Positions 4,092-62,714 are shown, numbered from the stretch's first letter. The stretch: 64,000 bases of DNA from an uncultured Candidatus Peribacteria bacterium (GCA_964613015.1 CAZTFP010000002.1:1737-65736); one strand, 5' to 3'. Numbers and translations are program-made. The notes: generated by a model from the letters alone, not told the origin.

Positions 4092-7064
4092 ATGACACCA
4101 AGAAAACATCTTGTAGCAATCATTGCTGTCATAGCTTGTATAGCATTATGAAGTTTTTGATATGCTGACCGGATAAATAATATCCTTCCCATAGAAAGCA
4201 TGTCGAATGTAAACCCATGTTCTGATGTCGGAAAAATGTATCTCAATCAAGATAATGATAATGATGGTAAAGCAGATTATTATCTGTATCTGAATAGTAA
4301 TTTTATATTGAATGGTTCTACCAACGATTTTTCTGCTGGACAGATTTTGATGACTGATCAAGGGATTACCTATAGTAAAGTTAGATATTATAAACCATTG
4401 GCTGATATGCTCTATAAAGTAGATGCCAACAACAATGCTATGGCGCTTGATAATAGCACATTCTATAGAGCAAGCCGAGCATTCCCATATAATACTCCTC
4501 TCAGATGAATAGCTACTACACCGAACAAAGTAGTATTTGAAAGACCTGCAGATAATGACCCCAATAAAAATATTGTCAGTGTCATCTATGATTATAAATA
4601 TAAATATGCAGTAGGATTCTATGATAATTCAAATTCTGCCTATCGATACAATCAAATTCCTGATATGTCGTATATGGGAAACAATCCTACCTATATAACT
4701 ACCCTTCCTGGAACCTATGGAAACAGAAGAAGAAGCTGGTCATCTGAACAATCTAGTTCTACTTGTAAAAACTATGAACTTCATCGATGTGGTAATGGTA
4801 TAGTAGAGACTTCTAATTCTAGCTATATGAATACTTTCACTTCAGAACAATGTGATGGTACTGCATGAGTACCTTCTGGATATACCTGTACATCTACTTG
4901 TACTCTTCAAGCAGTTGTTGTGAAACCAACCTGTACACTTTCAACTTCTCCTGGAGTTATTGTGGTATGAACTTCTGCACAAGCATCGTGGACCATCAGT
5001 GGAAATTACACCAATACTCCACAGATTACCTATACACCAAACACACGAATAATAACAGGATTACCATATACTGTTACTACTGCAAATGGTCAACGTACTA
5101 TAACGCCTACACATACCGGAGCATATACCTTGAGTATGACCGTAAGCAATAGTGCATGATCATCAGTATGTACTGCACCAATTACCGTAAACCCACCACC
5201 ACAAAATCTCAGCTGTACATTGACCTTGAGTCCAAATCCTGTGTATGTCAATCAGACAGCGGCAGTAACATGGAATGTTACAGGCGGTACTTTTGTATGA
5301 ACCTATATCAATGTTAGTCCACTTATTGCATGATGGCCACATTGGGTAAATACTAATCAATATACCTGAACGACATACGCTATCCCTACTACTGTAGGAG
5401 ACTATACTTTTAATATGTTGGTTAATAACTCACAATCCTCTGCACTCTGTACGGGAATTTTACATGTTATCTCAAATACTCCTCCGACTTGTTCACTCAC
5501 TACTAGTACACCTACTATTACTTCAGGAGGAACTGCAATCCTTAATGGCTCATATACCAATGCCACACTAGCCACTATGACTCCGTTTATTTCATGATTG
5601 AATTTTATCTATCCTACACGAAGTAATTCCAGTATTTCTGTACATCCTATTGTTACTACAACATATATACTCACGGTAAATGGCTTATCATGAACGACTC
5701 CTGCAGTGTGTCCTGTTACTGTAACCGTTACCAATCCTATTGCGCCTACGTGTTCACTCACTACGAATACGCCTACTATTACTTCAGGAGGAACTGCAAT
5801 CCTTAGTGGATGATATACTCATGCTACACTAGCAAACATAACTCCAACTATTCCTGGACTTAATTTTATCTATCCTACACGAAGTAATTCCAATATTTCT
5901 GTTCATCCTATTATTACTACAACATATACCATGCTAGTAACCTGACAAGCGGGAACTACTCCTGCAGTATGTCCTGTTACCGTAACGGTACTGGGTAGTG
6001 CTCAACTTTCTCTTACCAAAGCATTGATAAATAATATACCTTATCATTCTGGAGACCTTGTTTCGTTTAGAATCGATTTTGCAAATATAGGAAATATTAC
6101 TACACACAATAATATTCTCAGCGATTATTTGCCTGCTTCACTGACGTATGAAAATAGTCAAATCTATGGAATAACTGCTCCTTATACATTTGGAACAGGT
6201 ATAAATGGAAACAATATTCTGGTAGAATATTCAGGTTTTACCCTCCTTCCTGGACAACAATGATACATGATCATTACAGGAAAATTTAAATGATATCAAC
6301 GATCAAATCAGACATTAAACAATGTATTCTTATCTTCTAATGAAACAAATATACTTTATGCTTCTGCATTATTTTATGCATATGCACCTTCAGCAAATGC
6401 TACTATAACCAAAACAGTAAATAAAGTTTCTTATTATCCTGGTGAAGATGCAAGATTTACTATCGCCGTGACTAATAATGGTCCTGACGCTATCGATAAT
6501 GTACAACTTATCGATACATGGCCAAATAGTTCGTGTATTGTTGCTGATCCTCTTTGGACAGCAAATATGCCTATGACTATGACAAATAGTAGTAATCCCT
6601 ATGCCTGGAATGTAAATACTTCATTGCCCGTTGGCCAAACAGCATACCTCTATCTTACCTGACACATAGCTAATAATCCAAGCTGTATAGGAACATATAT
6701 CAATGTTGTAGATCTCAGATATACTGTCAATGGAGTCCTCAAAACAGGACAAGCATATACAAATATCAATGTTATCATTGTCCCTACTTCTAGCATGACT
6801 ATCGAAAAGAAAATTATAAGTTATGGAAATAATGTTGGTGACAACGTGCAATATGAAATTGTTTATACGAATAATTGAACCGCCACTATTACAAATTATA
6901 ATGTTGTAGACTATTGGCCAGGAACATTAAACTTTGGTTCTGCTAGTCCTATGCCGACAACACAGACTACCACTTCATGATGAATGTTACTCAACCGAAT
7001 ATTTACTACTCCACTTGTTCCTAATGGATCTGGTAAGATTACACTCAATGGAACCATCAGATAA
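4092..7064 (+). CDS. secreted or surface repeat protein (Ig-like modules plus DUF11/TIGR01451-type conserved repeat domains)
   Basis: ATG 4092, TAA 7062-7064. The gaps between the track ORFs were checked codon by codon in frame 3 with TGA=Gly. N-terminal hydrophobic anchor MTPRKHLVAIIAVIACIALG. About four ~90-aa Cys-bounded modules are followed by DUF11-like units (e.g. GEDARFTIAVTNNGPDAIDNVQLIDTWP). One CGNG...CDG Cys-rich motif. Confidence 0.75.
5484..5990 (+). repeat. tandem duplication, 2 x 261 nt (87 aa), inside CDS 4092-7064
   Basis: tgttcactcac at 5490 recurs at 5751. PTCSLTTSTPTITSGGTAILNGSY...PAVCPVTVTV is repeated as PTCSLTTNTPTITSGGTAILSGGY...PAVCPVTVTV with high nucleotide identity by eye. 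Confidence 0.8.
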
Positions 7065-7139
7065 ATAATAACTACCCAATTATATATAACATAAACTACC
7101 AAGTAATAATCATTTATTTTATACCTTATTGTTACGGAA

Positions 7140-10100
7140 ATGATTTATAGTACCACCACTAAAAAAGCATTGTACGTCATCGCCATCAGTCTCTTATGTT
7201 TGGTATGATTTACTATGGCTGATGTAAATAATATAAACCTTGCACCTGCAACACAATCAGCCATTTCTGGTTCATTGGTAACGTTTACCATAACCTGAAT
7301 GAATGGTACTGGTGATGTATATCTCAAATATATCTTGCCAACTTCAGCAACATATAATGTTATGTATCAAAATGCAACGCTTACGCCTATAAATAATGCA
7401 CTATTGAGTCTTGGTAGTGAACATGACCCATTATTTCTTATCCCCGCAAACAGTAATTTTTCCGTAACAATTACTGCTAAAGTAACAACAACTATGCGAA
7501 CACTTCCTACGTTAACTACTACATGAATATTCGCTGCTGATATGCAAATGTCTACGATTCTTACTTCGGCAATAGCACAAATCACCCCTATAGCTGATCT
7601 TATGATAACAAATAGTTTGACATGATCTAACCCAATATATTCTGGAGATATCGTATCCTATTATATAACACTCCAAAACATCTGATCAACGTTTGCCACA
7701 TGAATAACGTTCATTAGCACATTTCCTATTCCTACATTAACTACTCCAACTGCGACGTTCAATGGTATTTCCTATACATACAATTATATAAATTATCCAC
7801 AAGACTTTGTATGGAGCGGAAGTTATTTAAGTAATTTGAATGCAGGAGATACAATTACTATTCTTTTGCATGCTGCTTTGACACAGGCATTTCCTGTAGG
7901 TACTTCATTCAGTCAAATAGCCAAGACAACTACAGTAACTCCTGAATATACAACGGGAAATAATGCTGCTACAGCAACTGGTGTCGTTGTATGACTTCCT
8001 GATCTCCGAATAACAAAAACGTTTCTCCAACCATGGCCATCATTTTCATGAGATCAAGCCATTTTTATTATTACCTATGGAAATAGTGGTTACGCTACCG
8101 CACAAAATGTTGTGCTCAATGACACTGTTTCCTCTAAAATCTCTCGATCATCATTTGGTCCATTATGATCTGGCCAAGGCAATGCATCTATTAATTTATG
8201 AAATATACCAGCAGGAAATAGTGGTAGTATCATTATGACATGATATCTTAATGGATATTATCCATCTGGATGACCATGATCTTCTGGATTGATAATCAAT
8301 ACCGCAAGTATTTTTATGACATGAACAACAACAGAAATATCTACCGGAAATAACTTTGCCACTGTTACTGGGTGGGTTATAGACAACCCTCAGATTGCTA
8401 TCGATCTCTCAGCAAATAATATCACTAGACCTAACCTTGATAATTCTCCGTATGGATCTTGACCCAACATCATGATACAGGCAGTTTCTGGAGATACCGT
8501 AAGATTAACAATAACATATATCAATACCGGTAATTTCGCATGTTGGTATGGGAATCTAACCTTTGCTTGACTGACATGATTCACTTCATATACAAGTCTT
8601 CCAGGTTCGCTCGGAAATATAGCACCACAGAGCTGAGCTACGCTCTTCGTGACATGAATCGTATGACCACAAAATTTTATTTCGTTCACACCAAAAGTCA
8701 CTATAACCTGCTGAGAATGAGGGAATCGCGCAAGAACATGAACCGACCAAGTCAAAATCAACGAACCACTTGTGTGTTGAGATGGACTCATTACGCAAAA
8801 TGAGCAATGTGATACCTTATGAAATCTCGGAGTTCTTTTTAGTGGTCAAGTCTGTGAAAATCAACAATGAGTATGTGTGCTCCGTACGGACAGTATCATA
8901 AACAATGCATGTATCAATTATCAATATATCAATCAACTTGGATGAATAACAACTGGTCAAGCATGCAGTTCAGTTACCCTTCCTCTTTTGAATGCAAGTT
9001 GTACCAGTATGACATGATCAGCCCCTACAATAAATGGAAACTGATACGGTGTAAATTTAACTTGTAAATGAGCAAATACAACTTCTACTACGCCTATTCA
9101 TATAGACTGTGGTAATGGAACAAGCATTTCATGATCAGGCGCAATGTTTAATGGTGTATGTAATTATGCTGCAGGATTTATAGGTAGCGCACAATGTACG
9201 GTTGGGAATAATACCAATCCATCATTATGTAAAGTGCCTGTTTCTATAAACGCAGGAAATTGTTGATCACTTAATGCACTCAATGGAACCGTAGCACTTG
9301 TCGATGAAAATGGCAATGCAGAAAGTACGTTTACCTGTCAAACAGTCAACGGAACGACAGCACAAACCATGACTATTACCTGTGGTAATGGTACTCAACA
9401 TACAGCAAACAATGTCTCTATTTTGCAGGCATGATGTGAATATACCAATGTGATAAATACACCACAGACTTATAATGTTCAATGTGTAGTCGATGGAGTA
9501 AGTGCTCCCGTCTGTCAACAAAATCTCATTGTAGATGAATGAAGATTGTCCTATTGTGGGAATGGTATCCGTGAATGATATGAAAATTGTGATGATGGAA
9601 ATCGTAATTGAACTCCTTGAGATTCTTGTACTCTCTGATGTGATATCAAATGATCAGCTATGGTGTGATGTTTTAATATCTGAAATACGAGCATTTCCAT
9701 AGAGAAATGAGAAATACTTCCGTTCCGATGGACGCTTGATCAAACAAATAATATTAGACAATGAAATACTTGTAATAACTTATCAGATGGTACAATACCA
9801 GAAGATACTATTATGTGTACCTTTGATATCTACAATGGAGATCAGACAGAAGCAGATTGAAATCCCGTATATTCTATCGTCAAAAAATGTAATACGGACA
9901 CTCGACAAAATGCTCCTATCTTCAACTATTTTTTACATCAATGATGGCGATCACTCACCCATGCATTTGGAAAATATGATATGAATTCAAATGATTTTGT
10001 AAGTAATGTCTTTGGTGAGTATAAAATAGTATTGGATAAAGTAGCGTATAAATATTGTTTGTGAAATAACCAAGAAGTCGGTACAGAAATAGATAGAGTA

Positions 10101-10934
10101 TGTAGTGTTGACTTTTCAGTTACTCAACCATACTTAGCACAGAAGAGTTCGTTTGGTCTTACACCAAAAGCTACCACCGTTCCTCTAGATGGATATAAGA
10201 TGATTAACGGTGATGATCTCATTGATAGTACAGATCTCAATACTATTATGGTGCTTAATGAAGCAACGTACAATTGAGGAAATACTATTACGACTATGAT
10301 GGATAGTTTCATAAACAAATATGCTAAACTTGCTATCAAACATGGAACACTTCTTTCTGATGATGGTAATACTATAACTACCTATAAAGTTCCTGGACAA
10401 GATATAGTAGTTTTAAAAGGTGTGGGAACAATTACCTATACGGAGCCAGCAAACACAACCCAACCATTTACGGTTATTGTTGATGGCCCAAGTATAAAAA
10501 TAAACTGATCTATAGAAAATACAAATGCTATGTTCTTAGTCAATAAATGAAATATAACATTTCTCCCATCAGTAGATGCATGTACAAAAACACAGGTCGA
10601 TAAATGAATTTTCGTCACTAGTCAATGATCATTTTTGGCTGGACCAGATCTTACCAATACCAATACGAATAAAGAATGGTGTATGTATGGATGATTAAAA
10701 ATACAATGAATACTCATCGGAAATGGTATACAAGACCTTGTACAATCTAGAAGATCACAACTTAATGGTTGGTTTTATGTATGATGATCATCTGATGCAG
10801 CAATCAAAGCAGAAAGAAGAAACGAAATATTTAATGGTGCTTCTGTATTAATTGAATATAGTCCAAGTTTATGGAGTGCATTACCTCCAGGAGCAAGTGA
10901 ATTTACTAAAGCATTGGATGTATATAAGCAATAA
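7140..10934 (+). CDS. giant secreted protein (1264 aa) with DUF11-like repeats and Cys-rich CGNG..E.CDDGN repeats
   Basis: ATG 7140, TAA 10932-10934. Frame 3 was walked codon by codon for 7500-10934 with no TAA/TAG. Signal-like N-terminus MIYSTTTKKALYVIAISLLCLVGFTMA. Motifs CGDGLITQNEQCD and YCGNGIREGYENCDDGNRNGTPGDSCTLGC resemble the Myxococcus-type cysteine-rich repeat (TIGR02232). Confidence 0.75.
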
Positions 10935-10964
10935 AAAAACACTCTATTATAAAAATAAAAGAGA

Positions 10965-10998
10965 CAGACTTTCCTTTTGTGGGAAGCCTGTTTTTTTT
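10965..10998 (+). terminator. imperfect hairpin plus T8
   Basis: cagactttcc-ttttgtg-ggaagcctg followed by tttttttt, directly after the stop of CDS 7140-10934. Confidence 0.45.
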
Positions 10999-11185
10999 CT
11001 CTCTACCGTTTATCTGTAATCGTTTTTTGATCCATGTAGTTAGCTACATTCACTTGACTTATTTAATAAGATATGTATATACATTAACATGTATCATTGA
11101 GATACGTCTGCACTAGACAGTTATTTCTAGGAAAAATACTGAATAAAAAAAATAAAAAAAATTAAATAAAACATTAAAAAAAATT

Positions 11186-13198
11186 ATGAAGACAAAAATG
11201 TTAAGTTTTGTAATGTGCGCTCTCCTTGTTATGATTATAGGATTGAGCAATGCACACGCGATGGTGAATGACACTATTTGCCAAGGAGACACCATCACTA
11301 TCGGGAATACATTCCCCGGTACTGTTTGGTACTTATGGACTCCTGGATCTTACGGTAATTTTGCCCAGATCTCAGTAGCTCCCACTACTACTACTATGTA
11401 CATTGAAACCGATGAGAATTCGTCGTATGTCATTATCCACAGAGACACCTTCAATGTTGTGGTAAAGCCCAAACCTACCGTTTGGATTACATCACCAGGA
11501 GGTATCACTACGGTTTGTGTCGGAGGAAGTTTGCAATTGACGGCAAATTCCGCCTCAAGTCCTATCTCCTATCTTTGGAGTACAGGAGCAACGACACAAC
11601 AAGTCACGGTCTTTCCGGTTACTAGTCCAACCATCTATTCGGTAACAGGTACTTCTAATGGATGTAGCAATAGCGCAGCATTCACGGTGTATATACAGCC
11701 ATCACCGATAGCGTATACTATCACCGGAGATTCTACGTATTGTGCGTCACAAGCGGGAGTACTTATTGGGCTGAATGCCTCGGAAGCTGACTGCTACTAC
11801 ACCTTGTACAAAAATGGTGTAACCGTACAAACGATTAATGGAACTGGATTCGCTCTTAGTTTCGGAACGCAAGCTTACGGTACGTATATTATCAAAGGAT
11901 TCAAAAACACGCTCGGCTGTGAAGCCCAGATGAATGGATCCCTGCATGTTACAACAGTTCCTTTGCCACAAGCCGCTGGGCCAATTATCGGTCTAACTAC
12001 CGTGTGTCAAAATAGTGTGATGACGTATTCTACTGGTATTATACTCTATGCAACATCATATGACTGGTCACTACCTACCGGAGCTACTATAGTTTCTGGC
12101 CAAGGGACACAGATCATTACCGTTGATTTTAGCAGTGCCATTTCGGGACTCATTAAAGTCCGCGGACATAATACCTGTGGAGACGGTGTGTTTACCGACA
12201 CCCTCGTTACCGTTCATCAAGCACCCAATCTCACCGTAAGTGCAAGTAGTACAACTATTTGTGCTGGAGTGAATATCACCTTGATGGCAACGACTACCGC
12301 TAGTGGATGTACATTTTTGTGGAGCAACAGTCTCGGAACATCGAGTATAGTAACAGCTTCACCTATGAATGATATCACCTACTCAGTAACTGTTACGGAT
12401 AATAATGGATGCACAACCACAGGAACTATTTTTATCACTGTACATCCAGTACCCGTAGTAACCCTTCATTTGGTACAAAACCACTTCTGTCCTGCACAGG
12501 GACCAACCAAGCTTTTGGGTGGTTCACCTACAGGTCTAGGAGGAACGGGAATCTACAGCGGAACTTGTGTCCAACCCGGTGATACGGTCATACCATCATC
12601 TACAGCACCGAGTACCTACGTCATTACGTATACATATACTACACAATATGGCTGTAGTTCTGCTGCTACCGATCTTGCAGTGTTTTATGCTGCCACGCCT
12701 CCTATATTTTTGAGTATCAATGGCCCTATCTATACGGATACGCCACCCTTTGATCTCATGCCGTATGTTTCACCATTTGGTGGTACATTTAGTGGGCCTG
12801 GTACAAACACAAGTAACAGCATGTTTAATCCAGCAGCAGCTGGCGCTGGTACGCATCAGGTGTTTTATACTTATACTCACCCGATCACCGGATGTACTGC
12901 AACGCAAAGCCAATACATCAATATCGGTGCACTAGGAATTGGTGAAATACGTCTAGTAGTAAGCGCTATTGGACTATTCCCTAACCCAGTTAGCAATTAT
13001 GTACAACTTTCTGGTATCAATACTAAAGAGATCGTATCTCTCAATGTACTTGATATAACTGGCAGATTGTTTTATACCAACAATGCCCTGAGTAAAACTA
13101 TGCAAATTGATTTAGCATCATTTGATCCAGGGATCTACATTATTACTTTTACCAGCGTCAACGGCATATCTGCCAGCAAACGTTTCATAAAGAAGTAA
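11186..13198 (+). CDS. T9SS type-A C-terminal sorting-domain protein, Bacteroidota-like (Ig/PKD-like repeats); apparently foreign
   Basis: Uninterrupted 670-aa ORF under the standard code. Signal peptide MKTKMLSFVMCALLVMIIGLSNAHA. Repeated Cys-bounded Ig-like modules. The C-terminus LFPNPVSNYVQLSG...LNVLDITGRLFY...DPGIYIITFTS...KRFIKK fits the Por_Secre_tail (TIGR04183) pattern. No in-frame TGA, CGA or CGG. G+C is visibly higher than in the neighbours. Confidence 0.85.
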   Translation: MKTKMLSFVMCALLVMIIGLSNAHAMVNDTICQGDTITIGNTFPGTVWYLWTPGSYGNFAQISVAPTTTTMYIETDENSSYVIIHRDTFNVVVKPKPTVWITSPGGITTVCVGGSLQLTANSASSPISYLWSTGATTQQVTVFPVTSPTIYSVTGTSNGCSNSAAFTVYIQPSPIAYTITGDSTYCASQAGVLIGLNASEADCYYTLYKNGVTVQTINGTGFALSFGTQAYGTYIIKGFKNTLGCEAQMNGSLHVTTVPLPQAAGPIIGLTTVCQNSVMTYSTGIILYATSYDWSLPTGATIVSGQGTQIITVDFSSAISGLIKVRGHNTCGDGVFTDTLVTVHQAPNLTVSASSTTICAGVNITLMATTTASGCTFLWSNSLGTSSIVTASPMNDITYSVTVTDNNGCTTTGTIFITVHPVPVVTLHLVQNHFCPAQGPTKLLGGSPTGLGGTGIYSGTCVQPGDTVIPSSTAPSTYVITYTYTTQYGCSSAATDLAVFYAATPPIFLSINGPIYTDTPPFDLMPYVSPFGGTFSGPGTNTSNSMFNPAAAGAGTHQVFYTYTHPITGCTATQSQYINIGALGIGEIRLVVSAIGLFPNPVSNYVQLSGINTKEIVSLNVLDITGRLFYTNNALSKTMQIDLASFDPGIYIITFTSVNGISASKRFIKK

Positions 13199-13218
13199 TG
13201 TATTCTACTCACTTAGAT

Positions 13219-13248
13219 GTGGCAAGTATATCTTGCCACATTTTTTTT
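13219..13248 (+). terminator. rho-independent terminator
   Basis: gtggcaag-tatat-cttgccac followed by a(t)8. Confidence 0.6.
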
Positions 13249-13357
13249 ATATAAGAAATTGTCCTTGCATACGCCGATATGTTTTTTATTATGTATGGCA
13301 CGTGAAAAAAAATATGTACCGTTTCAGAAATCTGATTTTTAATATGTATATGTATGT

Positions 13358-14776
13358 ATGGGAAATACTTCTCCTAGTATAGTTGAAAAACCGATTATTA
13401 AATCACTCTTTACCCTTGCTATACCTATCGTATTAGCAAATCTTTTACAAAGCGCCTACCAACTCATTGATGCTTTTCGAGTAGGAAGATTATGATGAGA
13501 TGCTGTTGCTTCTGTGTCTGTGAGTTTTCCTATTATGTTTTTGTTGATCTCTATGTGAACCTGATTTGCTGTGGCCTGATCAACCCTTATAGCTCAGTAT
13601 TTTTGAGCAAAGAAAAAGGCTATGGTGAATCATGTAGCCGCACAGACATTGTTGATGGTACTTATCGTCTCCATATTCTTATCCGTAATATGACTTATTT
13701 CCTCTCCATTTCTACTTCATCTAATGTGAGTTGAACCGACTATTTTCACGAATGCATTGGCATTTTTGAGGATATCTTTCTTCGGTATATTGTTCGTTTT
13801 CTGATATTCTATGTTCCAGTCAATTATGAGATGAATAGGAGAAGTAAAATTACCTATGTATATAGTATTGTGAACGGTATTGTTAAATGCTATTCTAGAT
13901 CCATTCTTTATTTATGGGTTCTGACCGATACCTTCCATGGGCGTTTCCTGAGCTGCTATGGCTACCTTATTTACTCAATGAATAGCAGCAATAATCTGAA
14001 TCATAATACTCTTTAAAGGTAAATATAATATCCATGTTCATTGGTCAGATTTTATCCCTGATTTCTGATATATCAAAAAGGCTTTTTTCTTGTGACTACC
14101 ATCGTCTTTGGAAATGTCTTCTCGTGGATTGGGGATGGTAATATTAACGTTTCTCATCACGAGTTTCGGCACTCAAGCAGTAGCTTCTTATGGTGCTGGG
14201 TCAAATATTTTGCAACTCATAATCATACCTGCATTGGGACTTTCTATGGCAATCTCTATTCTCGTAGGACAGAATATATGAGCAAAAAGAATGGATAGAG
14301 CTGCTAACACAGCAAAAATCTGATCATTGATTTCATTTTGATTGCTTACCGGGATCTGAATCCTTGTATTTTTCAGTGCCTCATTCCTCATAAGATTCTT
14401 TATTCCTCACGATCCGGCAATCGTAGCTTGATGAACGGAATTTCTTCGTACCGTTGCTTTGACGTTTTGATTTATGGGATTACAAATGGCTATCCTCTGA
14501 GTGTTCCGTGCATCTGGAAATATGACTACCGCATTTATGCTTTCCGTCATTTCTCAGTGGGTAATACAATTCCCACTAGCCTATGTATTATCAAAACATA
14601 CATCATTATGAATCCACTGATTGTGGTATACATTTCCCGTTACCAATATTCTTACTGCCATCATATGCTATCTTCGGTTTATGAAGTGAACATGGAAAAA
14701 ATCTATCATTACTAAAGAAGATAGAATAATTGAACATATTAGTGAAGAAACTTTCGTGGAAGAAGGAACCCGTTAA
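13358..14776 (+). CDS. MATE family efflux transporter
   Basis: ATG 13358, TAA 14774-14776, frame 2. LANLLQSAYQLIDAF(W)VGRLGGDAVASVSVSFPIMFLL is the typical MATE N-terminus. About 29 in-frame TGA codons by hand count. CGA at 13478-13480 falls on the usual AFWVG Trp. Confidence 0.85.
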
Positions 14777-15030
14777 ATATTTATGATATATCTTCTCGTA
14801 TCGTTGGTTTTGTACACTCATAATTTGTTTTATTAGAAAATGACTTTCTCAGATATAAAACGTCTATTTTGTCTACCACTCTCTATGAGGATGTATTTTA
14901 TGAATTTTGTATTGATTTTGTATATATTTTCCCTATATTCACGGACACGTAAATTTTTTGTTTATTTTGAATTTTTGTAAAAGCCAATTATTAACTATTA
15001 TATTCACTTTATCATTTATCATCGTTTAGT

Positions 15031-15456
15031 ATGCCTACTATCAATCAACTTATCAAGACCTGAAGAAAACAAAAGACGTATAAATCTAAAGCGCCCGCTT
15101 TGCAGTTTGGTATCAATAAACTCGACAGCAACAAGAGAACCGATAGACCAGCTCCATTCAAAAGATGAGTATGTCTCAAAGTTTCTGTGATGGGTCCAAA
15201 AAAACCAAATTCAGCGCAAAGAAAATTTGCAAAAGTAAGACTATCTAATGGTGCTGAAATACTTGCCTATATCCCAGGAGAATCTCATACCCTTCAAGAA
15301 CACAGTGTAGTACTTGTAAGAGGATGAAGATGTAAAGATCTTCCAGGAGTAAGATATCATATCATCAGAGGAAAATACGACGCAAATCCTGTAGACAAAA
15401 GAAGACAATCTAGATCTCTTTACGGAGCAAAAAGACCAAAAGCAGCAAAAGCATAA
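15031..15456 (+). CDS. rpsL: 30S ribosomal protein S12
   Basis: [10 protein letters not shown](G)RKQK...VLVRG(G)[18 protein letters not shown] 15325-15327 lies at the conserved RGGR glycine. Confidence 0.97.
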
Positions 15457-15520
15457 TCTTAGTATCAAGCTTGGAGCTTAAAGCTTAAGGCTAATGTTTA
15501 TTTATCATTTAGTTTATACT

Positions 15521-15973
15521 ATGTCAAAATTAATTGCCGGTTCATTATCTAACCCAAAAATCGAAAAGATTATCAACTACATTATGAAAAATGGGAAAAA
15601 AAGTGTAGCTAAAAAAATCTATCACGATATGCTTCAAGAGATCAAATCCAATGGTCATATGAATCCAGAAATAGTCTTGGAAACTGCTATAGATAATGCT
15701 TCTCCTAGTTTGATGATCAAATCAAAAAGAATGTGAGGTTCTGTATATCAAGTTCCTGTAGAAGTTAAACAAGATAAAAAACTATTTTTTGCTTTCAAAC
15801 GAATTCTTGCTGGTACTGATTCAAAAACAGGTAAACCTATGTACAAAAAATTAGCTGAAGAAATCATGGCAGCATACGGTAATCAAGGATACGCAGTAAA
15901 GAAAAAAGAAGAAACACATAAAATGGCTGAAGCAAACAAAGCGTTTGCATACATGGCAAAATACGTTAATTAA
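15521..15973 (+). CDS. rpsG: 30S ribosomal protein S7
   Basis: ...SPSLMIKSKRM(G)GSVYQVPVEV...AVKKKEETHKMAEANKAFA. The ATG at 15521 is in frame with track ORF 15494. TAA 15971-15973. Confidence 0.93.
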
Positions 15974-15980
15974 TACACAA

Positions 15981-16020
15981 CGATTAAACGTTTCATCGAT
16001 TAAACGTTTAAACGATTTAT
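15981..16020. repeat. 16-nt-period direct repeat (cgattaaacgttt x2) with AAACGTTT palindromes, 3' of rpsG
   Basis: cgattaaacgttt at 15981-15993 and again at 15997-16009, followed by aaacgattt. Confidence 0.6.
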
Positions 16021-16039
16021 CTTCTATATTAATAATAAA

Positions 16040-16291
16040 ATGGGAAATACTAGTGGAGCAAAATATAAGCATATGATGTATAACGTTTCTCGAGCAAGCC
16101 AAAAATCTGGAAAAAAACTAGAAAAGGCAATTGCACGATATGTTGATCTTATGAAAAAAGAAGAAAAAGCAGGATCAGAAACGAAATGGATATACAAGAC
16201 GAGATTAAAAGCAAATGCTAGACTCAAAAGATATGGGGTAACTCAAGCGATGCTTGATGCTGCTCTAGCAAAAAAATGAGTTAGCAAATAG
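16040..16291 (+). CDS. small basic protein (83 aa), function unassigned
   Basis: Track ORF 16040-16279 continues through one TGA to TAG 16289-16291. Lys/Arg-rich and located in a ribosomal-protein neighbourhood. Confidence 0.4.
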
Positions 16292-16503
16292 ACCTGAACA
16301 CAACATTTTAATTATATTTGTTTAATAGCATGACTAGATTAAAAACCAACGCAAAAAGAAAGCTCAACAAAGCATTATTCAGAGTTGAAAAAGTTGTTAT
16401 CATGGACGTAAGAAGAAACCTTGAACAACAAAAAAAATGGAAAGCTAAGGTTATGAACAAAAAGGCTAAATAGTTTTTTTTAAATTATTGAATAGTATTT
16501 AAA

Positions 16504-16929
16504 ATGAATTTTGACAGACTCAAACATTTCTACGACAACAATGGAAGCAAAATCCTTGATATCAAACCAGGGATGTATATTGAAATCCATGAAAAAGATG
16601 TAGAAACAAATAGAATTTGGAGATTTAAATGTCTTGTTATCAAGACAAAAAAACCTAGTCATGCTGATGGATCATTTACCGTTAGAGGTATGGTCGCTGG
16701 TGTAGAGGTAGAAAAAATCTATCCTCTTTCATTCAACAAATTCGACAAAATTGTTCTTTTGGATGAATATCAAATCAGAAGAGCTAAACTTTACTATATC
16801 AGAGACAAAGTAGGTAAGGATGCTAGATTCAAATCCAAAATCACTGCTGAAAAGAGAGATATAAATATCCTCGATAAAGAAGCTGGTAAAGTAAAAGAAA
16901 ATAAAGGAAAGAAAAAAGGAAAAAAATAA
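16504..16929 (+). CDS. rplS: 50S ribosomal protein L19
   Basis: ...FTVRGMVAGVEVEKIYPLSFNKFDKIVLLDEYQIRRAKLYYIRDKVGK fits the L19 signature. Confidence 0.9.
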   Translation: MNFDRLKHFYDNNGSKILDIKPGMYIEIHEKDVETNRIWRFKCLVIKTKKPSHADGSFTVRGMVAGVEVEKIYPLSFNKFDKIVLLDEYQIRRAKLYYIRDKVGKDARFKSKITAEKRDINILDKEAGKVKENKGKKKGKK

Positions 16930-16962
16930 TCTCACTATTTTATTATCTTCGTTATTATTCTA

Positions 16963-17625
16963 ATGGAACTTATTGTAACCTCTCGCCAAAATAAGAAAGC
17001 TAAAGATCTTAGAAAAGAAGGATTGATTCCTGGTATTGTCTATGGAAAGCATCTTAAAGAGCCTATTGCTGTCGCATGCAAAAGAAATGATCTTATCAAA
17101 AAATATAAGGAAGCTGGATATTCTACTCCACTTACTCTCAGTGGTGATGATATAGATCAACTTGTACTTATCCAAGATATCCAATTGGATCCTGTAAGTG
17201 ATATGCTTATCCATATAGATTTTTTGGCGGTTAATAAAGATGAAAAAGTTACTACAGAAATACCTGTAAAGATGATTGGTGAGTCTATAATTGAAAAATT
17301 ATGAGAAGGAAAAATACAACTTTTGAAAGACTTTATTGAAGTTGAAGCATTTCCACAAGATTTACCTCATGATATTACTATCGATATCTCTGCAATCAAA
17401 AACATCAATGATGTTATCGTTGTGGGAGACTTGAAATTCTCTGATAAAGTAGAAGTTCTTGATGATCCAGAGCAAGCTATCGTTACTGTTCTTATTATGA
17501 CAGAAGAAGTAGAAGAAGCTCCTGTATCTGCTGTTGAAGCAACTCCTGCCGCTGGTACTGCTCCTGCTGCTGGTACAACCTCTGCTGCTCCAGCAAAAGA
17601 CGACAAGAAAGACCAAAAGAAATAA
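16963..17625 (+). CDS. rplY: 50S ribosomal protein L25 / Ctc family, with Ala/Pro/Lys-rich tail
   Basis: Track ORFs 16963-17304 and 17323-17625 are in one frame, joined through TGA 17302-17304. LRKEGLIPGIVYGK...LIHIDFLAV is L25-like. Confidence 0.88.
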
Positions 17626-17701
17626 TAATTAGACCTGAGTATCAAGATCCAATTATCAAGAAAATAACCTATGACTGTTTTAATATATTAATTAGAATAA
17701 A

Positions 17702-17890
17702 ATGGCAAGAGTATGTGATTTTACCTGAAGATGAACATGATCTGGAAATATGAGATCTCATTCTATGAGAGCAACCAAAAGATCTTTTAAGGTAAACCTT
17801 ATTAATAAAAAAGTGAAACTTGAAGATGGTTCTCAGCTCAAGATAAAAGTCAGTTCCAAAATATATAAGAAACTCAAAGGATTTGTATAA
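17702..17890 (+). CDS. rpmB: 50S ribosomal protein L28
   Basis: MARVCDFT(G)R(G)T(G)SGNMRSHSMRATKRSFKVNL matches the L28 N-terminus. Three TGA=Gly codons. Confidence 0.9.
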
Positions 17891-17901
17891 AAAACACTTA
17901 A

Positions 17902-17947
17902 ATGACCAATAGTTTTCCTAGTGAATCCTTTGGTCATCGATTTTTTT
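17902..17947 (+). terminator. hairpin plus T-run after rpmB
   Basis: atgaccaa (17902-17909) pairs with ttggtcat (17930-17937), followed by ttttttt 17941-17947. Confidence 0.5.
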
Positions 17948-17951
17948 GTTA

Positions 17952-18003
17952 GGGGGTCTCAGTCGGTAGAGCAACTCCGCTAAAGGTAGTCTAGGGTTCA
18001 ATA
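17952..18003 (+). pseudogene. decayed tRNA-like fragment (D-arm intact; no foldable acceptor or T-arm)
   Basis: tctcagtcggtagagcaa aligns with the D-arm of the adjacent tRNA-Lys (gctcagtcggtagagcaa). ctagggttcaat resembles the 5' half of a T-arm. The anticodon loop gctaaag lacks U33 and the 3' half is missing. Confidence 0.35.
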
Positions 18004-18033
18004 TAGTAATAATATGATAATGTATAATGGTAT

Positions 18034-18109
18034 GGGGTGGTAGCTCAGTCGGTAGAGCAATGGCCTTTTAAGCCAGTGGTCCAGGGTTCGATCCCCTGCC
18101 ACCCTACCA
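18034..18109 (+). tRNA. tRNA-Lys (anticodon UUU), CCA encoded
   Basis: Hand-folded cloverleaf: acceptor GGGGTGG/CCACCCT, D-arm GCTC-AGTCGGTA-GAGC, anticodon arm ATGGC-CTTTTAA-GCCAG, variable loop TGGTC, T-arm CAGGG-TTCGATC-CCCTG, discriminator A, then CCA. Confidence 0.9.
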
Positions 18110-19649: not shown

Positions 19650-19817
19650 TTCCATGTCTCTCTCCCCTTGCTATACAAAAAGATTCTGGGCTTCATTGCT
19701 CAGAATTTTTTATTACCACCCGGGTGCATTTTTTGGTTGAAATACGGACCAAATAGAGTACATAAGAGTATTGTATTTTTTGCTTTTTTTTTGTATTTAC
19801 CTATTTTGCTTGTACAC

Positions 19818-22268
19818 ATGAAACATTTAGTGATTGTTGAGTCTCCGGCTAAATCTGCGACTATCAAAAAATTTCTCGGTGAAGGATTTGAAGTAAAAGC
19901 CTCGTTTGGACACGTAATAGATCTCCCACAAAAAGAACTCGGTGTAGATGTCAAAAATAATTTTGCACCAAAATATATAGTATCTCCTGATAAAACTAAG
20001 GTGGTGAGTGAGCTAAAGGCGCTAGCTAAAAAGGCTGATAAAGTCTGGATCGCTACCGATGAAGACCGCGAAGGAGAAGCAATATGACGACATGTGGCTA
20101 ATGCACTAGGATTGGATGTTAAAAAAACTGCAAGAATAGTCTTCCATGAAATCACCAAAGAGGCGATTGATGCAGCAGTAAAAAATCCTAGAACGATAGA
20201 TATGAATCTCGTAGATGCACAACAAGCAAGAAGAATCTTAGATAGATTAGTATGATTTGAATTGTCACCTGTCCTCTGGAAAAAAATTAAAATGGGATTG
20301 AGTGCATGAAGAGTGCAATCCGTAGCTGTAAGATTGATCGTCGAAAGAGAAAGAGAAATCCAAAAATTTGAATCTGCATCATTTTTTAAAGTGATTTGAA
20401 GTTTTGTGGGTGATGCGAAAAAAGAATTTAAAGCTGAACTTTCCAAAGATTTGCCTACTGCCGACGAAGCAAAGAAATTCCTTGAATCATGCAAAGATGC
20501 CAAATATACGATAGAAAATGTGGAAGTAAAACCAGGGAAAAAGTCACCTTCTGCTCCCTTTACGACCTCTACCCTTCAACAAGAAGCGAGCAGAAAATTA
20601 GGATTTTCAGTCGCAAGGACAATGCAAGTTGCTCAGAAATTATATGAATGAGGATTTATCACGTACATGAGAACTGATTCCGTAAATATGTCAGATTTTG
20701 CGCTCAAAGCAGCTCAAGACGAGATAACCAAAAGATATGGAAAAGACTATACTAACCCAACACAGTATGTCACCAAAAGCAAATGATCACAAGAAGCACA
20801 TGAATGTATCAGACCAGCACATATGGAAAACAACATGGCAGGCAATGACGCTTCCGAAAAAAGATTGTATGAATTGATTTGGAAAAGAACTATTGCTTCA
20901 CAAATGGCACCAGCTGAAGTAGAAAAAACGAAAGCAACCATAAGTATATCAACGAATAATAAATTTAATTTCATCGCTAGTGGTGAAGTTGTGAAGTTTG
21001 ATGGATTTCTGAAAGTATATTTCGAATCTAAAGATGAGGAAGATGGAGAAGGAGCAAAGGACGAGGAAGAAGGCATGTTACCTAAGTTAACTAAGGGTGA
21101 AATATTGGCAATGCAACAGATTCTTGCTGGAGAAAGATTTAAAAATCACCCACCAAGATACACAGAAGCGTCGTTGGTTAAAAAGCTTGAAGAGCTTGGT
21201 ATCGGACGTCCATCTACCTATGCACCAACGATTTCAACCGTACAAAAAAGAGGATATGTTGTGAAAGAAGATAGAAACGGAACGGAAAGAAAGTATCAGG
21301 AAATGATTTTGAGACTCTGAGTCATCAAATCTGAAACGAAAAAACAAAATACCTGAGCAGAGAAACAAAAGCTCTTCCCTACAGATATCGGTATGGTGGT
21401 AAATGATTTTTTGGTCGCGAACTTCAAAGAGATTTTGGATTATAATTTTACGGCAAGCGTGGAAGAAGAATTCGATGAAGTCGCTGAAGGTAAAATCAAG
21501 TGGCCTGAAATGATGAAAAAATTTTACGGACCATTTCATAAAGAAGTAGCTAAGACGATAGAATTCGCAGAAAAGCAGACGGGAGAGAAAGCGCTCGGTA
21601 TAGATCCTAACACCGGTAAGACCGTCGTCGCAAGGATAGGAAGATTTGGTCCTATGGTACAAGTAGGGACCGCTCAAGATACGGATAAACCAAAATTTGC
21701 TTCGCTCAGACCCGGACAAAATATTGAATCGCTTACCCTGGAAGATGCCTTGGCATTGTTCGCATTACCGAGAATTATCTGACAATATGAGGGTGAATGA
21801 GTCACCGCAGCAGTAGGAAAATTTGGACCGTATTTGAAATATAAAACATTCTTCGTCTCTATCCCCAAGACCTTGGATCCCTACACTATCACGATGGAAG
21901 AAGGTATCCCGCTCATAGAGAAGAAAATCGACACAGAAAAAAACAAGTATATCAATAATTTCGATTATGATGGCAAAAAAATAGAAGTATTGAATGGACT
22001 CTATGGTGCATACATAAAATTTGATGGAAATAATTATAAAATCGCCAAAGGGGGGAAAGATGCTAGCGACTTGAGCAAGGATGAATGTATAGCGATTATT
22101 GCCAGCGGTCCTAAGCCTAAATTCTGAGCTAAAACAGTAACAAAGAAAGAAACGAAAAAGCTAACTAAAGAAGCTCCTTCAACCAAAAAAATAGCAGTAA
22201 AGAAAACCCCAACGAAAAAGTCCATAGTCAAAAAATCCCCAACGAAAACTAAACCATCAAAGAAATAA
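19818..22268 (+). CDS. topA: DNA topoisomerase I
   Basis: [21 protein letters not shown]..., TOPRIM motif [11 protein letters not shown](G)(W)[14 protein letters not shown], Lys-rich tail. Track ORFs 19668, 20406, 20823, 21393 and 21834 all lie in frame 3. TAA 22266-22268. Confidence 0.95.
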
Positions 22269-36591: not shown

Positions 36592-38025
36592 TTATTCAAA
36601 ATGGTGGAGGTAGTCAGTTAGTTCTTTGAGGGAAATAGAAGACGTAGTAGGTATGGTCTGAATGAAAATTTTGATGGATGGATGAAAAAAAAGATGTCTT
36701 TTTTCTATTTTATTGAGTAATGTTATACCAGAGAGTGTCTTAGATCTACTCAATGCAGTATATGCTTGACCACCAGTAAATGTATTGCACAAATCTAGAT
36801 TGCAAGCATCAAACGTCATCCCTTGTGATTTGTGAACGGTAATAGCGTAGGCTAATTTGAGAGGAAATTGGTCGTAAGTTCCCAATATATTTTCAGTTAT
36901 TTTTCATTTACTGGAAACCGTAATTTCTTTGTTAGCTCGTGATTCTGAGGTAACCATAATCACCTCACCACCTATCTCTACATCTACATAGTCTTCTCAT
37001 AAATTTTGGATTGTTCCCATGGATCCATTAATCCATTTTCAGAATGCATCATTGGTCACCATCATCACCTTTGCTCCCTTTTTCAGTTTCAAAATATTGT
37101 CCGTCTTCTTCATGGAATCCGGAAAATATCAGTCCGTCAGTCATTCATAAAGATATTCTTGTCCTGGGAGTTCTTGAATTTTTTTATGATTTGTTTCGTC
37201 TACTTTGCCTCTATGGGTAGATAATAAAATCGTATCTTTGGCTGCTTGACCTATCTGCTTGTTGAGCAAAGCGATATGGGATTCAGATATTGTTTCGTTT
37301 CTAATCGCATCGAGAATATCTCAGAAAAATATATCATCCCCTTGTCTATAATTTTTTTTGAGTTCTATCGTAGTATAGTTGAATTTTTTTTTGAATGTTT
37401 TGGAATCAAAAAACCATTCGCTATCATATTCTCCGCTAAATTTTTGTCTCCACTCTTGGGTGCTTACCGGTGGTAACTGAAAGACATCTCATACGAATAT
37501 CACTGGTTTACCTCAAAATGGTTTTTTGATAAGCGCTTCATCTCCTACATCTTTGGCAAGATAATATTTCATCAATAGATTTATACAATCGAGAGTATTT
37601 GAATTGACCATTCCGATTTCATCGATAACAACAAATGGCACATTGATCAGTGTCTGTATTTTGGATTTTTTTAATTTATATTTTTTATTTTTTTTGTCGA
37701 CGAGATATGGTTTGATTTCTTTGGGAAACACATTTTCTATGCCTAAAGAAAAAAATGAGTGCACGGTTTGTCATCAAATATTGAGTGCTGATATCCCTGT
37801 AGATCATAGCACCAACGGTGATTTTCCTATCTCTTTACAAAATTCTATAATATCTTTTATAAGTGTAGATTTTCCTGTCCCCGCTTTGCCCGTCAAAAAA
37901 CAACAATCATCTGTTTCATCAAGCGTTTTCAAAAAATACATAGCGTCTGCGTTATCTTTTCGTTTATCCAAAAGTTCTTTGTACGTATCTTTATATTCAT
38001 CTGCTAAATCTTTTATATGGAGCAT
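36592..38025 (-). CDS. Pif1/RecD-like SF1B DNA helicase
   Basis: Track ORFs 37804-38025, 37513-37764 and 36592-36885 share one frame. GKAGTGKST, VVIDEIGMV, YAITVHKSQGMTFD. Confidence 0.88.
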
Positions 38026-38153
38026 TGTATCAGGCTAAATAAAATTCATGTGCGTACACTATAGGTATCTTTTGATCTATTTCAATAGCTTTGTCAAAAA
38101 TAAATTTGACAATCCATATAGTGAAACATACTGTACACGTATCAATAAAAAAA

Positions 38154-38564
38154 TTAATTTTTTATATGTTGCCCATTGAGTATTTCTAATAGTCTTACTG
38201 AAAAAACTTCTTTGTTTATTGGTCTTATAATAACATCATTAAATACATTTTCTGTATCAATATATCTATCAGCAGCAGTGAATCCAATTATTGGTATTTT
38301 GGATGTTTTAGGATTAGATTTTATTATTTTTGATGCTTCTGATCAGTTTATTCATGGTAAATTTACATCCATAAGAATAAGATCAAAAAGAGCTTGTGTT
38401 GATTTTTCTACCGCGTCTAATCAGTCAATAGCTACAACAATATTTTCTCCCTTGATTCCAGTTCTTTTAAGGTATATTTTCGTTAGTTGTACATTTATTT
38501 CTGTATCATCAACGACTAATATTTTTTTATCACGCATTCAATTGTTCTTTTCTTGCTGGTTCAT
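38154..38564 (-). CDS. stand-alone response-regulator receiver domain (CheY-like)
   Basis: KKILVVDDTEIN...DLILMDVNLP(G)IN(G)SEA...IPIIGFTA. Alternative start at 38537. The plus-strand track ORF 38176-38586 is antisense to it. Confidence 0.8.
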
Positions 38565-38938
38565 GATATTTTCCTCTACTCTATAAAAATAATAGTTTAT
38601 GCAATATAGAGAATGCAATATAAAAAGCAAACAATAATTGACATTTTATATAAAATATTTTTAACTTTTACCGTCTAATTTTTTATTTAAAAAAAATTAT
38701 AAAAAACTCATGAACTTAAAACATACTTATTATAGATCTCTTTATCTTTTTTCTAGTACATTTTTTTGCCTCGCTCAATACCATTTTAGTATCAGTATTT
38801 CATCATCTTCTGCTTCTTCTTCATCATCAAACTCCTTATCATCATCCTCATCATCGTCGTCATTTTCTTTTTCATTATATATGGTGTAGCGTATTTTTTC
38901 GTATTCCTGTGAAAAAATCATGGAGATAAGAATAAATT

Positions 38939-46325: not shown

Positions 46326-46444
46326 CCTCCTTTACTGGACCGAAGGGAATCCAGTGGGAAAAGGGGGTGGCGAAGGCGGAGGATTTTTATGACTAAGTAA
46401 AATCTCCCACCGCAAGCGGTCCCCCCTCTTTCAAATAAAGAGGG
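46326..46444 (+). other. GC-rich multi-hairpin island (unclassified; possible structured RNA)
   Basis: cctcc (46326-30) pairs with ggagg (46378-82). ctgga/tccag (46335-54). accgc-aa-gcggt (46409-20). ccctcttt-caaat-aaagaggg (46424-44). Confidence 0.3.
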
Positions 46445-46489
46445 AATAAAAAAAACAAATTAATTCTTTTTAGTTTTTCATTGTGTAGT

Positions 46490-62491: not shown

Positions 62492-62650
62492 CTGCTACTA
62501 TAAAGGTAAATAAAATTTCTGAAATAACAAAAAATATTTTGGACGCTATTTTCTACTTTTTTATGAGCGTAATACAAGATGAAATCACATATCTATGGCG
62601 TGCATGCTAATCATTCCCTTTTTCTTGATTCTAGCAATTATAAATAAAAT

Positions 62651-62678
62651 TTGACAAATATTTTTTTCTGGATATAAT
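62651..62678 (+). promoter_or_regulatory. sigma-70-like promoter TTGACA-16-TATAAT
   Basis: ttgaca at 62651-56 and tataat at 62673-78, 37 nt upstream of the ATG at 62715. Confidence 0.45.
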
Positions 62679-62714
62679 ATATTTGTTTACTTTTATTATT
62701 TTTATTTAAACAAA

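Follow-up and report, generated by a model that had tools for sequence, protein, structure and literature searches.

Reassignment of TGA to glycine, together with reassignment of CGA and CGG to tryptophan, has been reported (Shulgina and Eddy 2021; PMC8629427). Alternative codes are usually seen as a firewall that hinders the exchange of genes, and a gene once imported should drift toward the code of its new host. The nearest known phenomenon to the one described here is that of the code-11-compatible phages associated with code-25 Gracilibacteria and Absconditabacteria (Liu et al. 2023; PMC10746230), which have no in-frame TGA, use stops other than TGA and give the same product in either code, while their partner bacteria read TGA as Gly; the same study reports integrated prophages to be TGA-rich. 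Here, we analyze a gene that shares these properties. It lies at positions 11186 to 13198 (plus strand) of a 64,000-nucleotide stretch of DNA, hereafter called the window (GCA_964613015.1, CAZTFP010000002.1:1737-65736, labelled as an uncultured Candidatus Peribacteria bacterium), and encodes a predicted secreted protein of 670 amino acids. Unlike the phage genes, the window gene and its relatives are chromosomal, syntenic, apparently vertically inherited and of a cellular envelope type, with no phage genes nearby, and the constraint on them also takes in the CGA/CGG reassignment. Our literature search found no report of chromosomal TGA-free genes in code-25 bacteria.

Three further systems offer comparisons. 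The predicted protein resembles type A cargo of the type IX secretion system (T9SS), defined by TIGR04183 and PF18962 and including multi-Ig adhesins with PKD_6, Ig_7 and SprB repeats, in its predicted Sec signal peptide, its tandem Ig modules and a tail that scores above the family cut-offs; older members of the family keep Gln at position +1 of the mature protein, and the outgroups are all from Bacteroidota. It differs from such cargo in belonging to a doubly recoded Absconditabacterales genome and to a family that is restricted to one clade at identities of at least 38%. The transferred DNA (T-DNA) genes of Agrobacterium reside in one organism but bear the expression signals of another, where they function. 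By analogy only, the window gene could likewise be said to be "written" for another cell in its code, leader, signal peptide and sorting tail, although a transfer apparatus and border sequences are lacking at its locus, and the promoters resemble native ones and not those of a host. GhpA of Aureispira, also a member of the Bacteroidota, is a T9SS cargo that is used in predation and forms heptameric hooks. It shares with the window protein a chain of Ig-like modules, a likeness of repeat fold only, and its PDB fragments (9flp, 9fly) are numbered beyond residue 5000, compared with the 670 residues of the window protein.

A gene readable in the standard code within a doubly recoded genome

An earlier note on this DNA, made from the sequence alone, had described the genome as doubly recoded, and our alignments agree. 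Open reading frames (ORFs) of the window reach full length only if TGA is a sense codon, and CGA and CGG align with conserved Trp in phosphoglycerate mutase and TopA. In phosphoglycerate mutase, the segment MDRDNNxER aligns to MDRDKRWDR in PDB structures, with CGA/CGG at the conserved Trp; in TopA, invariant Trp columns are written TGG, CGA or CGG, and CGA/CGG are present in three of five.

The gene at 11186-13198 ends in TAA and yields the same product in the standard and the resident code. By codon count, its Gly residues are written with 65 GGN codons and no TGA, its Trp residues with six TGG, and neither CGA nor CGG occurs. TGA makes up 31.9% of the Gly codons in the remaining window ORFs, which gives the absence of TGA among 65 codons a probability of 1.4e-11; Trp in those ORFs is written TGG 88 times and CGA/CGG 114 times, which gives six TGG out of six a probability of 0.007. 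There are 28 out-of-frame TGA triplets inside the gene, so the avoidance of TGA is specific to the reading frame. This is the sole standard-code ORF longer than 300 amino acids in the window (the runner-up has 293), and the window holds no other standard-code gene of at least 200 amino acids. The earlier statement that it is the only long gene readable without recoding thus stands, and our codon counts reproduced all of the hand counts reported with it (GGN against TGA, TGG, CGA and CGG, G+C, NCG and NCC, and the TGA use of neighbors).

The composition of the gene is also distinct. Its G+C fraction is 0.437, compared with 0.305 to 0.386 for the 29 window ORFs that are long only with TGA as sense, and its NCG and NCC codon fractions are 0.054 and 0.069, compared with about 0.02 and about 0.03 for the rest. 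G+C at third codon positions (GC3) is 0.37, inside the window range of 0.18 to 0.38. The surplus falls mainly at codon positions 1 and 2, because the protein is rich in Thr, Gly, Pro and Ala and because GGN replaces TGA.

Substitutions appear to follow standard-code synonymy

The earlier note had proposed looking for the gene in related Absconditabacterales, and about 25 other code-25 contigs of this order carry a homologue at the same locus. We examined the family contigs L001, L003, L005, L008-L018, L087, L088, L090 and L091, some of which are 218, 238 and 565 kb long, together with 15 metagenomic loci. All of these loci were reached through the gene itself, so counts made on them do not give the genome-wide frequency of standard-code genes.

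Across 32 standard-code genes, there is no in-frame TGA; columns of conserved Gly hold 1196 GGN codons and no TGA, and the stops are TAA in 28 genes, TAG in four and TGA in none. The 15 metagenomic loci contribute about 1230 more Gly codons, again without TGA. Four apparent TGA codons in metagenomic ORFs turned out to precede the true starts. Out-of-frame TGA occurs in the standard-code genes at normal density, and 41% of their Gly codons are GGA, one mutation away from TGA. The codon usage of these genes is further marked by Arg written mostly as CGT/CGC and not AGA, and by raised GGC, TGC, CAG and CTG.

Divergence within the family is deep. At least two different GGN codons are used in 23 of the 24 invariant Gly columns, and identity at conserved fourfold-degenerate sites is 0.32, so that synonymous sites are saturated; the synonymous divergence (dS) exceeds 1.2 in all family pairs except that of the window and L005. 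Native control genes exchange the two kinds of Gly codon: of 27 invariant Gly columns in the adhesin orthologues, 22 contain both TGA and GGN, as do 21 of 48 in TopA, a slow-evolving gene. The suggestion that the gene merely "happens to lack" the reassigned codons does not survive this comparison, as their absence has been kept through saturating synonymous divergence while neighboring genes swap TGA freely.

The tryptophan reassignment can be followed in the same way. Columns of conserved Trp in the standard-code genes contain 159 TGG and no CGA or CGG. The 13 CGA/CGG codons that do occur are all at Arg or polar columns. Conserved Arg columns contain CGT 17 times, AGA 10, CGC 7, CGA 4, CGG 3 and AGG 3, and CGA/CGG outnumber every other one-step neighbor of CGT/CGC there. 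In native genes, by contrast, CGA/CGG align mainly with Trp, and Arg is never among their commonest partners. A second standard-code family, of 194-amino-acid proteins, has an invariant Arg29 written CGG, CGT or AGA in three genomes and an invariant Arg150 written CGA or AGA.

Three kinds of substitution distinguish between the two codes. The change from GGA to TGA is synonymous in the resident code and creates a stop in the standard code, and the change from TGG to CGR is synonymous in the resident code and replaces Trp with Arg in the standard code; neither was ever seen. The change from CGY to CGR, which replaces Arg with Trp in the resident code and is synonymous in the standard code, is seen at conserved Arg columns. 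Our central result, drawn from these aligned codons, is that substitutions in the standard-code genes appear to follow the synonymy of the standard code and not that of the resident code. Simple explanations founder on this pattern. We regard it as well supported by the codon comparisons that purifying selection keeps the gene set readable in the standard code.

Family, synteny and ancestry

A search of 5.8 billion proteins returned a tight, full-length family at 41-95% identity, beyond which there were only partial matches to Bacteroidota at about 34% or less. Full-length homologues over all loci span 38-95% identity and all lie in code-25 contigs with the same neighbors; every homologue found outside the Absconditabacterales belongs to Bacteroidota, with an identity of at most about 37% over a partial match. 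The nearest outgroup that could be placed (P0020, 33%) lies on a true Bacteroidota contig with PorP/SprF and OmpA neighbors. Since all outgroup homologues found are Bacteroidota proteins and the domains are PKD_6, Ig_7, SprB and the T9SS type A tail, the earlier description of the gene as of Bacteroidota type was correct. We sought a Bacteroidota donor operon as well, and tblastn of the companion genes against 68 Bacteroidota loci gave only generic Ig-repeat matches; in a full database search with the 490-amino-acid companion, partial identity to Bacteroidota proteins did not exceed about 43%.

Gene order is the same in every family contig examined: TGA-rich giant CLIPPER-type adhesin genes, then the standard-code gene, then rpsL-rpsG-L19-L25-L28-tRNA-Lys. 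Positions 7000-14510 of the window are colinear in one segment with the ENA contig L005 (91.6% nucleotide identity), and positions 10828-14954 are colinear with L006 and L007 (96.7%), two contigs derived from other samples with other assemblers. Contigs of up to 565 kb in NCBI, JGI, ENA and Logan show this arrangement again. In one subclade, the locus holds three consecutive standard-code genes, encoding an Ig_7 protein of about 260 amino acids, a SprB/BNR protein of about 500 and a PKD_6 protein with tail of about 700-1000, the last being the counterpart of the window gene, and sometimes a fourth paralogue upstream, beyond a TGA-rich beta-helix gene. This interleaving of standard-code and TGA-rich genes excludes misassembly, and with both junctions colinear in three independent assemblies (L005, L006 and L007), the assembly or binning chimera raised in the earlier note can be set aside.

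The closest pairs are the same in this family and in ribosomal proteins (L009-L015, L008-L087 and L010-L012-L001), which fits vertical descent. Ribosomal proteins were used for this comparison in place of the adhesin gene tree, which agrees moderately with that of the family (r = 0.46), probably as a result of adhesin paralogy. Across 11 genomes, the GC3 of standard-code genes tracks native GC3 (r = 0.85), so the standard-code genes have long been evolving in place. Nor does the locus look like a recent genomic island, as it is syntenic in about 25 contigs, identity on the donor side is about 37% at best, and its borders consist of terminators and a promoter only. The "recent" acquisition that had been suggested fails by a refuting condition that the earlier note itself had named, as close homologues of the same codon profile are common at this locus in other code-25 genomes. 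It appears instead, and we consider it well supported by these comparisons, that a Bacteroidota-derived set of envelope genes was acquired by an ancestor of a freshwater or groundwater clade of Absconditabacterales and has since been inherited vertically at a fixed locus.

Domains, fold and signals of the predicted protein

The protein begins with a predicted Sec-type signal peptide, MKTKMLSFVMCALLVMIIGLSNAHA, encoded at 11186-11260 (plus strand, as are all features of the gene), which has a typical n-h-c region structure and a cleavage site placed by eye; the AlphaFold model has a helix of low confidence at residues 3-18 within it. About six Cys-containing, Ig-like beta-sandwich modules follow (11261-12940), as delimited by Pfam and the AlphaFold model. 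They include a PKD_6 domain at residues 261-337 (nucleotides 11966-12196; Pfam E 1.4e-19), and Ig_7 matches weakly. The C terminus is a T9SS type A sorting domain of the Por_Secre_tail type (residues 597-667, 12974-13195), which scores 39.7 bits with PF18962 (cut-off 27) and 42.8 bits with TIGR04183 in NCBIfam (cut-off 23). With PF18962 and TIGR04183 above their cut-offs and PKD_6 matched at the E value given, the Ig/PKD-like modules and Por_Secre_tail-type tail that had been recognized by eye were identified correctly.

The AlphaFold model is all-beta, with a mean predicted local distance difference test (pLDDT) score of 84, and consists of the N-terminal helix, about six Ig-like sandwiches and a C-terminal sandwich. 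The tail forms a compact Ig-like sandwich of seven strands at residues 596-669 (pLDDT about 80). The top structural matches of the whole model are Ig-repeat segments of GhpA (E 4e-25 to 1e-13, 18-22% identity), followed by generic Ig chains. The ratio of nonsynonymous to synonymous divergence (dN/dS) between the window and L005 is 0.18, and many Cys, Gly and aromatic columns are invariant across the family, which indicates that the protein is under purifying selection. Sequence and model together suggest that the gene product is a Sec-exported surface or secreted chain of Ig-like modules with a T9SS-type tail. Most plausibly, it is a fibrous adhesin in host contact, a role that its place directly after the resident giant adhesins fits.

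By sequence and fold, the window protein would be classed as T9SS type A cargo, although it is doubtful that it is a working T9SS substrate, because relatives are described as having a Gram-positive-type wall and no T9SS (PMC8080830). None of the T9SS machinery (SprA/Sov, PorV, PorU, GldKLMN) was seen in the window or in the fetched flanks, whole genomes not having been scanned, and we found no paper linking T9SS to Absconditabacteria. It is therefore unlikely that the encoding cell itself uses a T9SS to secrete and anchor the protein.

A Gln after the signal peptidase I site (the "Q-rule") has been described as specific to Bacteroidetes (PMC5837995). By eye, about 25 of 25 three-gene-clade proteins have Gln at the predicted +1 position (..SAQ·S, ..LSQ·T), as do two further standard-code families, the motif being ..A/S/G-Q. 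The predicted site of the window protein, also read by eye, is AHA·MVND, with no Gln at +1. Native adhesins have A·D or A·Y at the cleavage site and use TGA and CGA inside their signal peptides.

Transcription and translation signals

Terminators on both flanks and a promoter candidate indicate that the window gene is a separate transcription unit. Upstream of it lies the native giant adhesin-like gene that served as our control (7110-10934, plus strand; CLIPPER/DUF11 in its orthologues), in which we counted 55 TGA against 76 GGN codons and six CGA. The TGA share of Gly is 39%, 26% and 42% in the three upstream adhesin genes and 61% in the downstream MATE gene. A hairpin scan placed a terminator-like hairpin with a T run at the end of the adhesin gene (10969-10996, plus strand, with the hairpin at 10969-10986). 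A sigma-70-like promoter candidate, TTGACT-16 nt-TATATA, was read from the sequence at 11053-11080 (plus strand); it is absent from the list of the consensus scanner because its second hexamer ends in A. A leader of about 100 nucleotides follows (11081-11185, plus strand), which has no Shine-Dalgarno sequence and is extremely A-rich before the ATG. Past the stop codon, there is a strong terminator-like hairpin of 12 pairs with a T run (13215-13253, plus strand, with the hairpin at 13215-13243), equivalents of which follow the homologues in other genomes. A search for known RNA elements in or around the gene gave no Rfam match at E up to 1. The only tRNA genes seen near the locus when we looked for those reading the reassigned codons were tRNA-Lys and tRNA-Thr, apart from an ARAGORN call that falls in a coding region of L015 and could not be assigned.

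Leaders of Bacteroidota genes are A-rich. Over the 25 nucleotides before the start codon, 30 standard-code genes average 63% A and 21% T, compared with 33% A and 45% T in 27 native genes (Mann-Whitney p ~1e-10), and native leaders have a pyrimidine-rich, CATTTTAC-like motif in place of the A-rich stretch. Bacteroidota also start translation without Shine-Dalgarno sequences (PMC6847099). Promoters of the standard-code genes have another character: the motif TTGAC[AT]-N15-19-TA... is found 53-170 nucleotides before the ATG in 10 of 17 standard-code genes of other genomes, and it resembles the conserved TTGATT-N17-TATATT promoter of the native rpsL operon.

Possible explanations

We consider it likely that these genes came from Bacteroidota long ago, have been inherited vertically since and are selected to stay readable in the standard code, and, as a general inference, that a standard-code translation system would do some fitness-relevant decoding of them. 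A recent horizontal acquisition from a standard-code Bacteroidota, which would have left too little time for TGA and CGA/CGG to enter, is suggested by the Bacteroidota-type domains and homologues, by the raised G+C and by odd codons such as CGT/CGC for Arg and more GGC, TGC and CAG. It is very improbable, as orthologues are syntenic in about 25 code-25 contigs down to 38-40% identity, synonymous sites are saturated, GC3 tracks each resident genome, neighbors have swapped TGA in 44-81% of their invariant Gly columns over the same divergence, and no close donor was found among the 5.8 billion proteins. The compositional step at the gene is what a Bacteroidota fragment joined to an Absconditabacterales contig would produce, yet we give such a chimera almost no credence: colinear junctions in three assemblies and the recurrence of the arrangement in contigs from four sources stand against it, as does the interleaving with TGA-rich genes, and the terminators and promoter fit a normal gene insertion. 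Even jointly, recent transfer and chimera account for very little of the probability. Translational selection in the bacterium itself, under which extremely highly expressed genes avoid reassigned codons read by special, perhaps scarce or slow tRNAs, has more in its favor. Promoters are near consensus, terminators are strong, the absence of TGA stops fits termination in the resident code, and ribosomal-protein genes are also lower in TGA (12% of Gly codons, compared with 30%). We think it improbable nonetheless, because the codon shifts of standard-code genes do not run in the ribosomal-protein direction (r = 0.21; Arg, Ser and Ile are opposite, there is no enrichment of TCT or ATC, and CAG, CTG and GGC are used more), because TGA is absent from more than 2800 Gly codons (at 12% TGA, P ~1e-89 for the first 1608), and because it predicts any CGA/CGG at Trp columns, whereas they are found at Arg columns.

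Somewhat less probable again is ongoing gene flow with an unsampled standard-code reservoir, such as a shuttle element or a host-shared phage, that would overwrite the locus and reset its codons. Code-11-compatible phages targeted by spacers of these bacteria do exist, and these bacteria import foreign DNA via ComEC and pili (PMC8080830); however, no close homologue occurs in IMG/VR or in any standard-code contig, the locus has no mobility genes, GC3 tracks the resident genome, and kinship follows that of ribosomal proteins. Phage origin of the gene itself was considered and rejected, since IMG/VR yielded one match at 34% and the neighbors are adhesins, a MATE transporter and ribosomal proteins, with no phage hallmark genes. 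A more serious possibility, although we still hold it unlikely, is that the bacterium itself translates the genes as a code-robust set, needed when TGA and CGA/CGG are decoded unreliably or their decoding is switched. Examples would be an influx of host release factor 2 and Arg-tRNA during feeding, phage interference with the special tRNAs, or a switch like that of bldA and TTA in Streptomyces. This would account for native promoters, avoidance of both reassigned codon classes and the lack of TGA stops; the distinct leaders suggest separately controlled genes, and the code-11-compatible phages offer a precedent for pressure toward code neutrality (PMC10746230). Against it, there is no evidence that such a state exists, and by itself it leaves the conserved Gln at +1, the T9SS tail and the near-neutral CGA/CGG at Arg unexplained.

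The single most likely reading, to which we nevertheless attach only a limited probability, is that the message is decoded in an attached standard-code host or prey cell. In a Bacteroidota host, code, A-rich leader, Q-rule signal peptide, T9SS tail and a candidate barrel-like companion would all be functional at once. Transfer could be by DNA or, more likely, by mRNA, the latter being favored because the promoters look native. The host might then build on its own surface structures that the epibiont exploits, in analogy to T-DNA or to self-supplied receptors of the Tir type. That a recoded epibiont or predator keeps envelope genes written for a standard-code, T9SS-bearing host, which builds the surface structures it exploits, is an idea that we offer tentatively. 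The probability left after all of these causes belongs to something not yet thought of.

Several observations weigh against decoding in a host. These bacteria are not known to have any mechanism for delivering DNA or RNA to a host. The prey of the cultured or described relatives are Gammaproteobacteria, not Bacteroidota (PMC8080830). The Bacteroidota promoter TAnnTTTG is essentially absent from 17 upstream regions of standard-code genes, and their promoters look native, which argues against DNA transfer followed by transcription in Bacteroidota. The window's own subclade has lost the Gln at +1, and cleavage sites, like some start codons, were placed by eye. Codons CGA and CGG make up about 17% of the CGN Arg codons in standard-code genes, a low share that reflects either partial selection against them or ordinary codon bias, and the Arg columns in which they occur might tolerate Trp. 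Finally, that no gene ends in TGA suggests a role for termination in the resident code too; the bacterium itself thus probably translates the genes as well.

Nothing known of these bacteria accounts for the long retention of standard-code readability. Chromosomal genes have here been held in the standard code through saturating divergence inside a doubly recoded bacterium, and the pattern is an evolutionary signature, open to direct test, of a second decoding context that matters for these organisms. Candidates for that context are a host cell, imported host factors, phage interference and a code-linked regulatory switch, each of which would be new to the biology of the candidate phyla radiation (CPR). 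The genes also provide a handle for finding the hosts of this clade, which would be sought among bacteria with a T9SS, and code-based binning or contamination filters would wrongly discard genes such as these.

Neighboring genes and other standard-code genes

Between the window gene and the rpsL operon lies a native MATE-type transporter gene (13343-14776, plus strand; 28 TGA against 18 GGN) that is 99% identical to the copy in L005. Because rpsL directly follows the standard-code gene in other genomes, the MATE gene is a lineage-specific insertion common to the window and L005. The dS between these two is 0.05 for the MATE gene, 0.14 for the standard-code gene and 0.48 for the adhesin gene, which suggests recombination or faster turnover in the adhesin gene. 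Downstream, positions 14995-18109 contain ORFs of 154, 164, 152 and 232 codons and then tRNA-Lys(UUU) at 18034-18109, matching the rpsL-rpsG-L19-L25-L28-tRNA-Lys block, and topA follows the tRNA gene at 19650-22268. A conserved block, GTGTTGATTTTGTATCTATTTTCCCTATATTCA-GGACACGTAAATTTTTTGTTTAC, precedes rpsL at 12349-12376 of L001, with equivalents in L003, L008, L010, L012, L087 and L091. It is probably the promoter of the ribosomal-protein operon (TTGATT-N17-TATATT) with a conserved, regulatory leader.

Native starts in L001, L003, L087 and the window (e.g., 7110-7139) have no Shine-Dalgarno sequence; the CATTTTAC/ATTTTAT motif recurs there, and TAnnnT hexamers end about 9-11 nucleotides before the ATG. 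These pyrimidine-rich starts may belong to very short leaders or leaderless mRNAs. The adhesin orthologues have ..CGTTACGGAA directly before the ATG in common. The TGA share of Gly varies among native genes of the window, from about 8% (46439-47896) to 47-61% (62514-64000 and the MATE gene), and TGA use may fall as expression level rises. The lowest G+C of the window (0.261) is at 38001-39000, around a short ORF on the minus strand (38154-38645), with TTGACA-type motifs at 38106 and 38638.

A CTG(T/A)TAA(T/C)CAG-like palindrome stands before the first gene of the three-gene cluster at about 7590-7665 of L001 and in L003, L010, L012, L014 and L015. About 20 nucleotides past it, there is a hairpin with compensatory changes (GGTCG..CGACC, GGTTG..CAACC, GCTTG..CAAGC) and then A7-8 TTC. 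It may serve as a regulatory site or as an RNA element of the leader; the window is without it because it is without the first two genes of the cluster.

The 194-amino-acid standard-code family is represented by 8972-9556 of L008 (minus strand), 5837-6421 of L093 and 10001-10585 of L092, and its 11 clusters are confined to SR1- or "Gracilibacteria"-labelled or unnamed contigs. In L008 and L093, the gene adjoins the window-gene homologue divergently. Its products have an invariant ..PAFSQ·F signal-peptide end, and its 16-18 Gly codons include no TGA. The structural model (pLDDT 69) has 12 antiparallel strands, and all structural matches are membrane beta-barrels (KdgM, NanC, OmpG, VDAC), albeit weak ones (E at least 0.06). 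We treat a possible outer-membrane-type barrel as a lead only; it would be odd in a bacterium thought to be single-membraned.

L092 (GCA_021734475.1, a 282-kb contig) is very AT-rich, and its native genes write Gly mainly as TGA, with TGA:GGN ratios of 17:1, 43:8 and 20:5. At 7821-11154, it contains five small genes with 0, 0, 1, 0 and 0 TGA against 12, 8, 8, 18 and 5 GGN, all with A-rich leaders, which encode two lipoprotein-like proteins (LTSC lipobox), two membrane proteins and the 194-amino-acid protein. The lone TGA of this run sits about eight codons before the end of the gene for a 206-amino-acid membrane protein, in L008 as well as in L092. A further standard-code gene, truncated where its contig stops, lies downstream of the ribosomal-protein cluster at 5065-5833 of L016. 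It has no TGA among 37 Gly codons and nine TGG, and its product combines beta-propeller-type repeats (GG.DYW.VKL..G...W) with a signal peptide ending in ..AFSQ·QQ.

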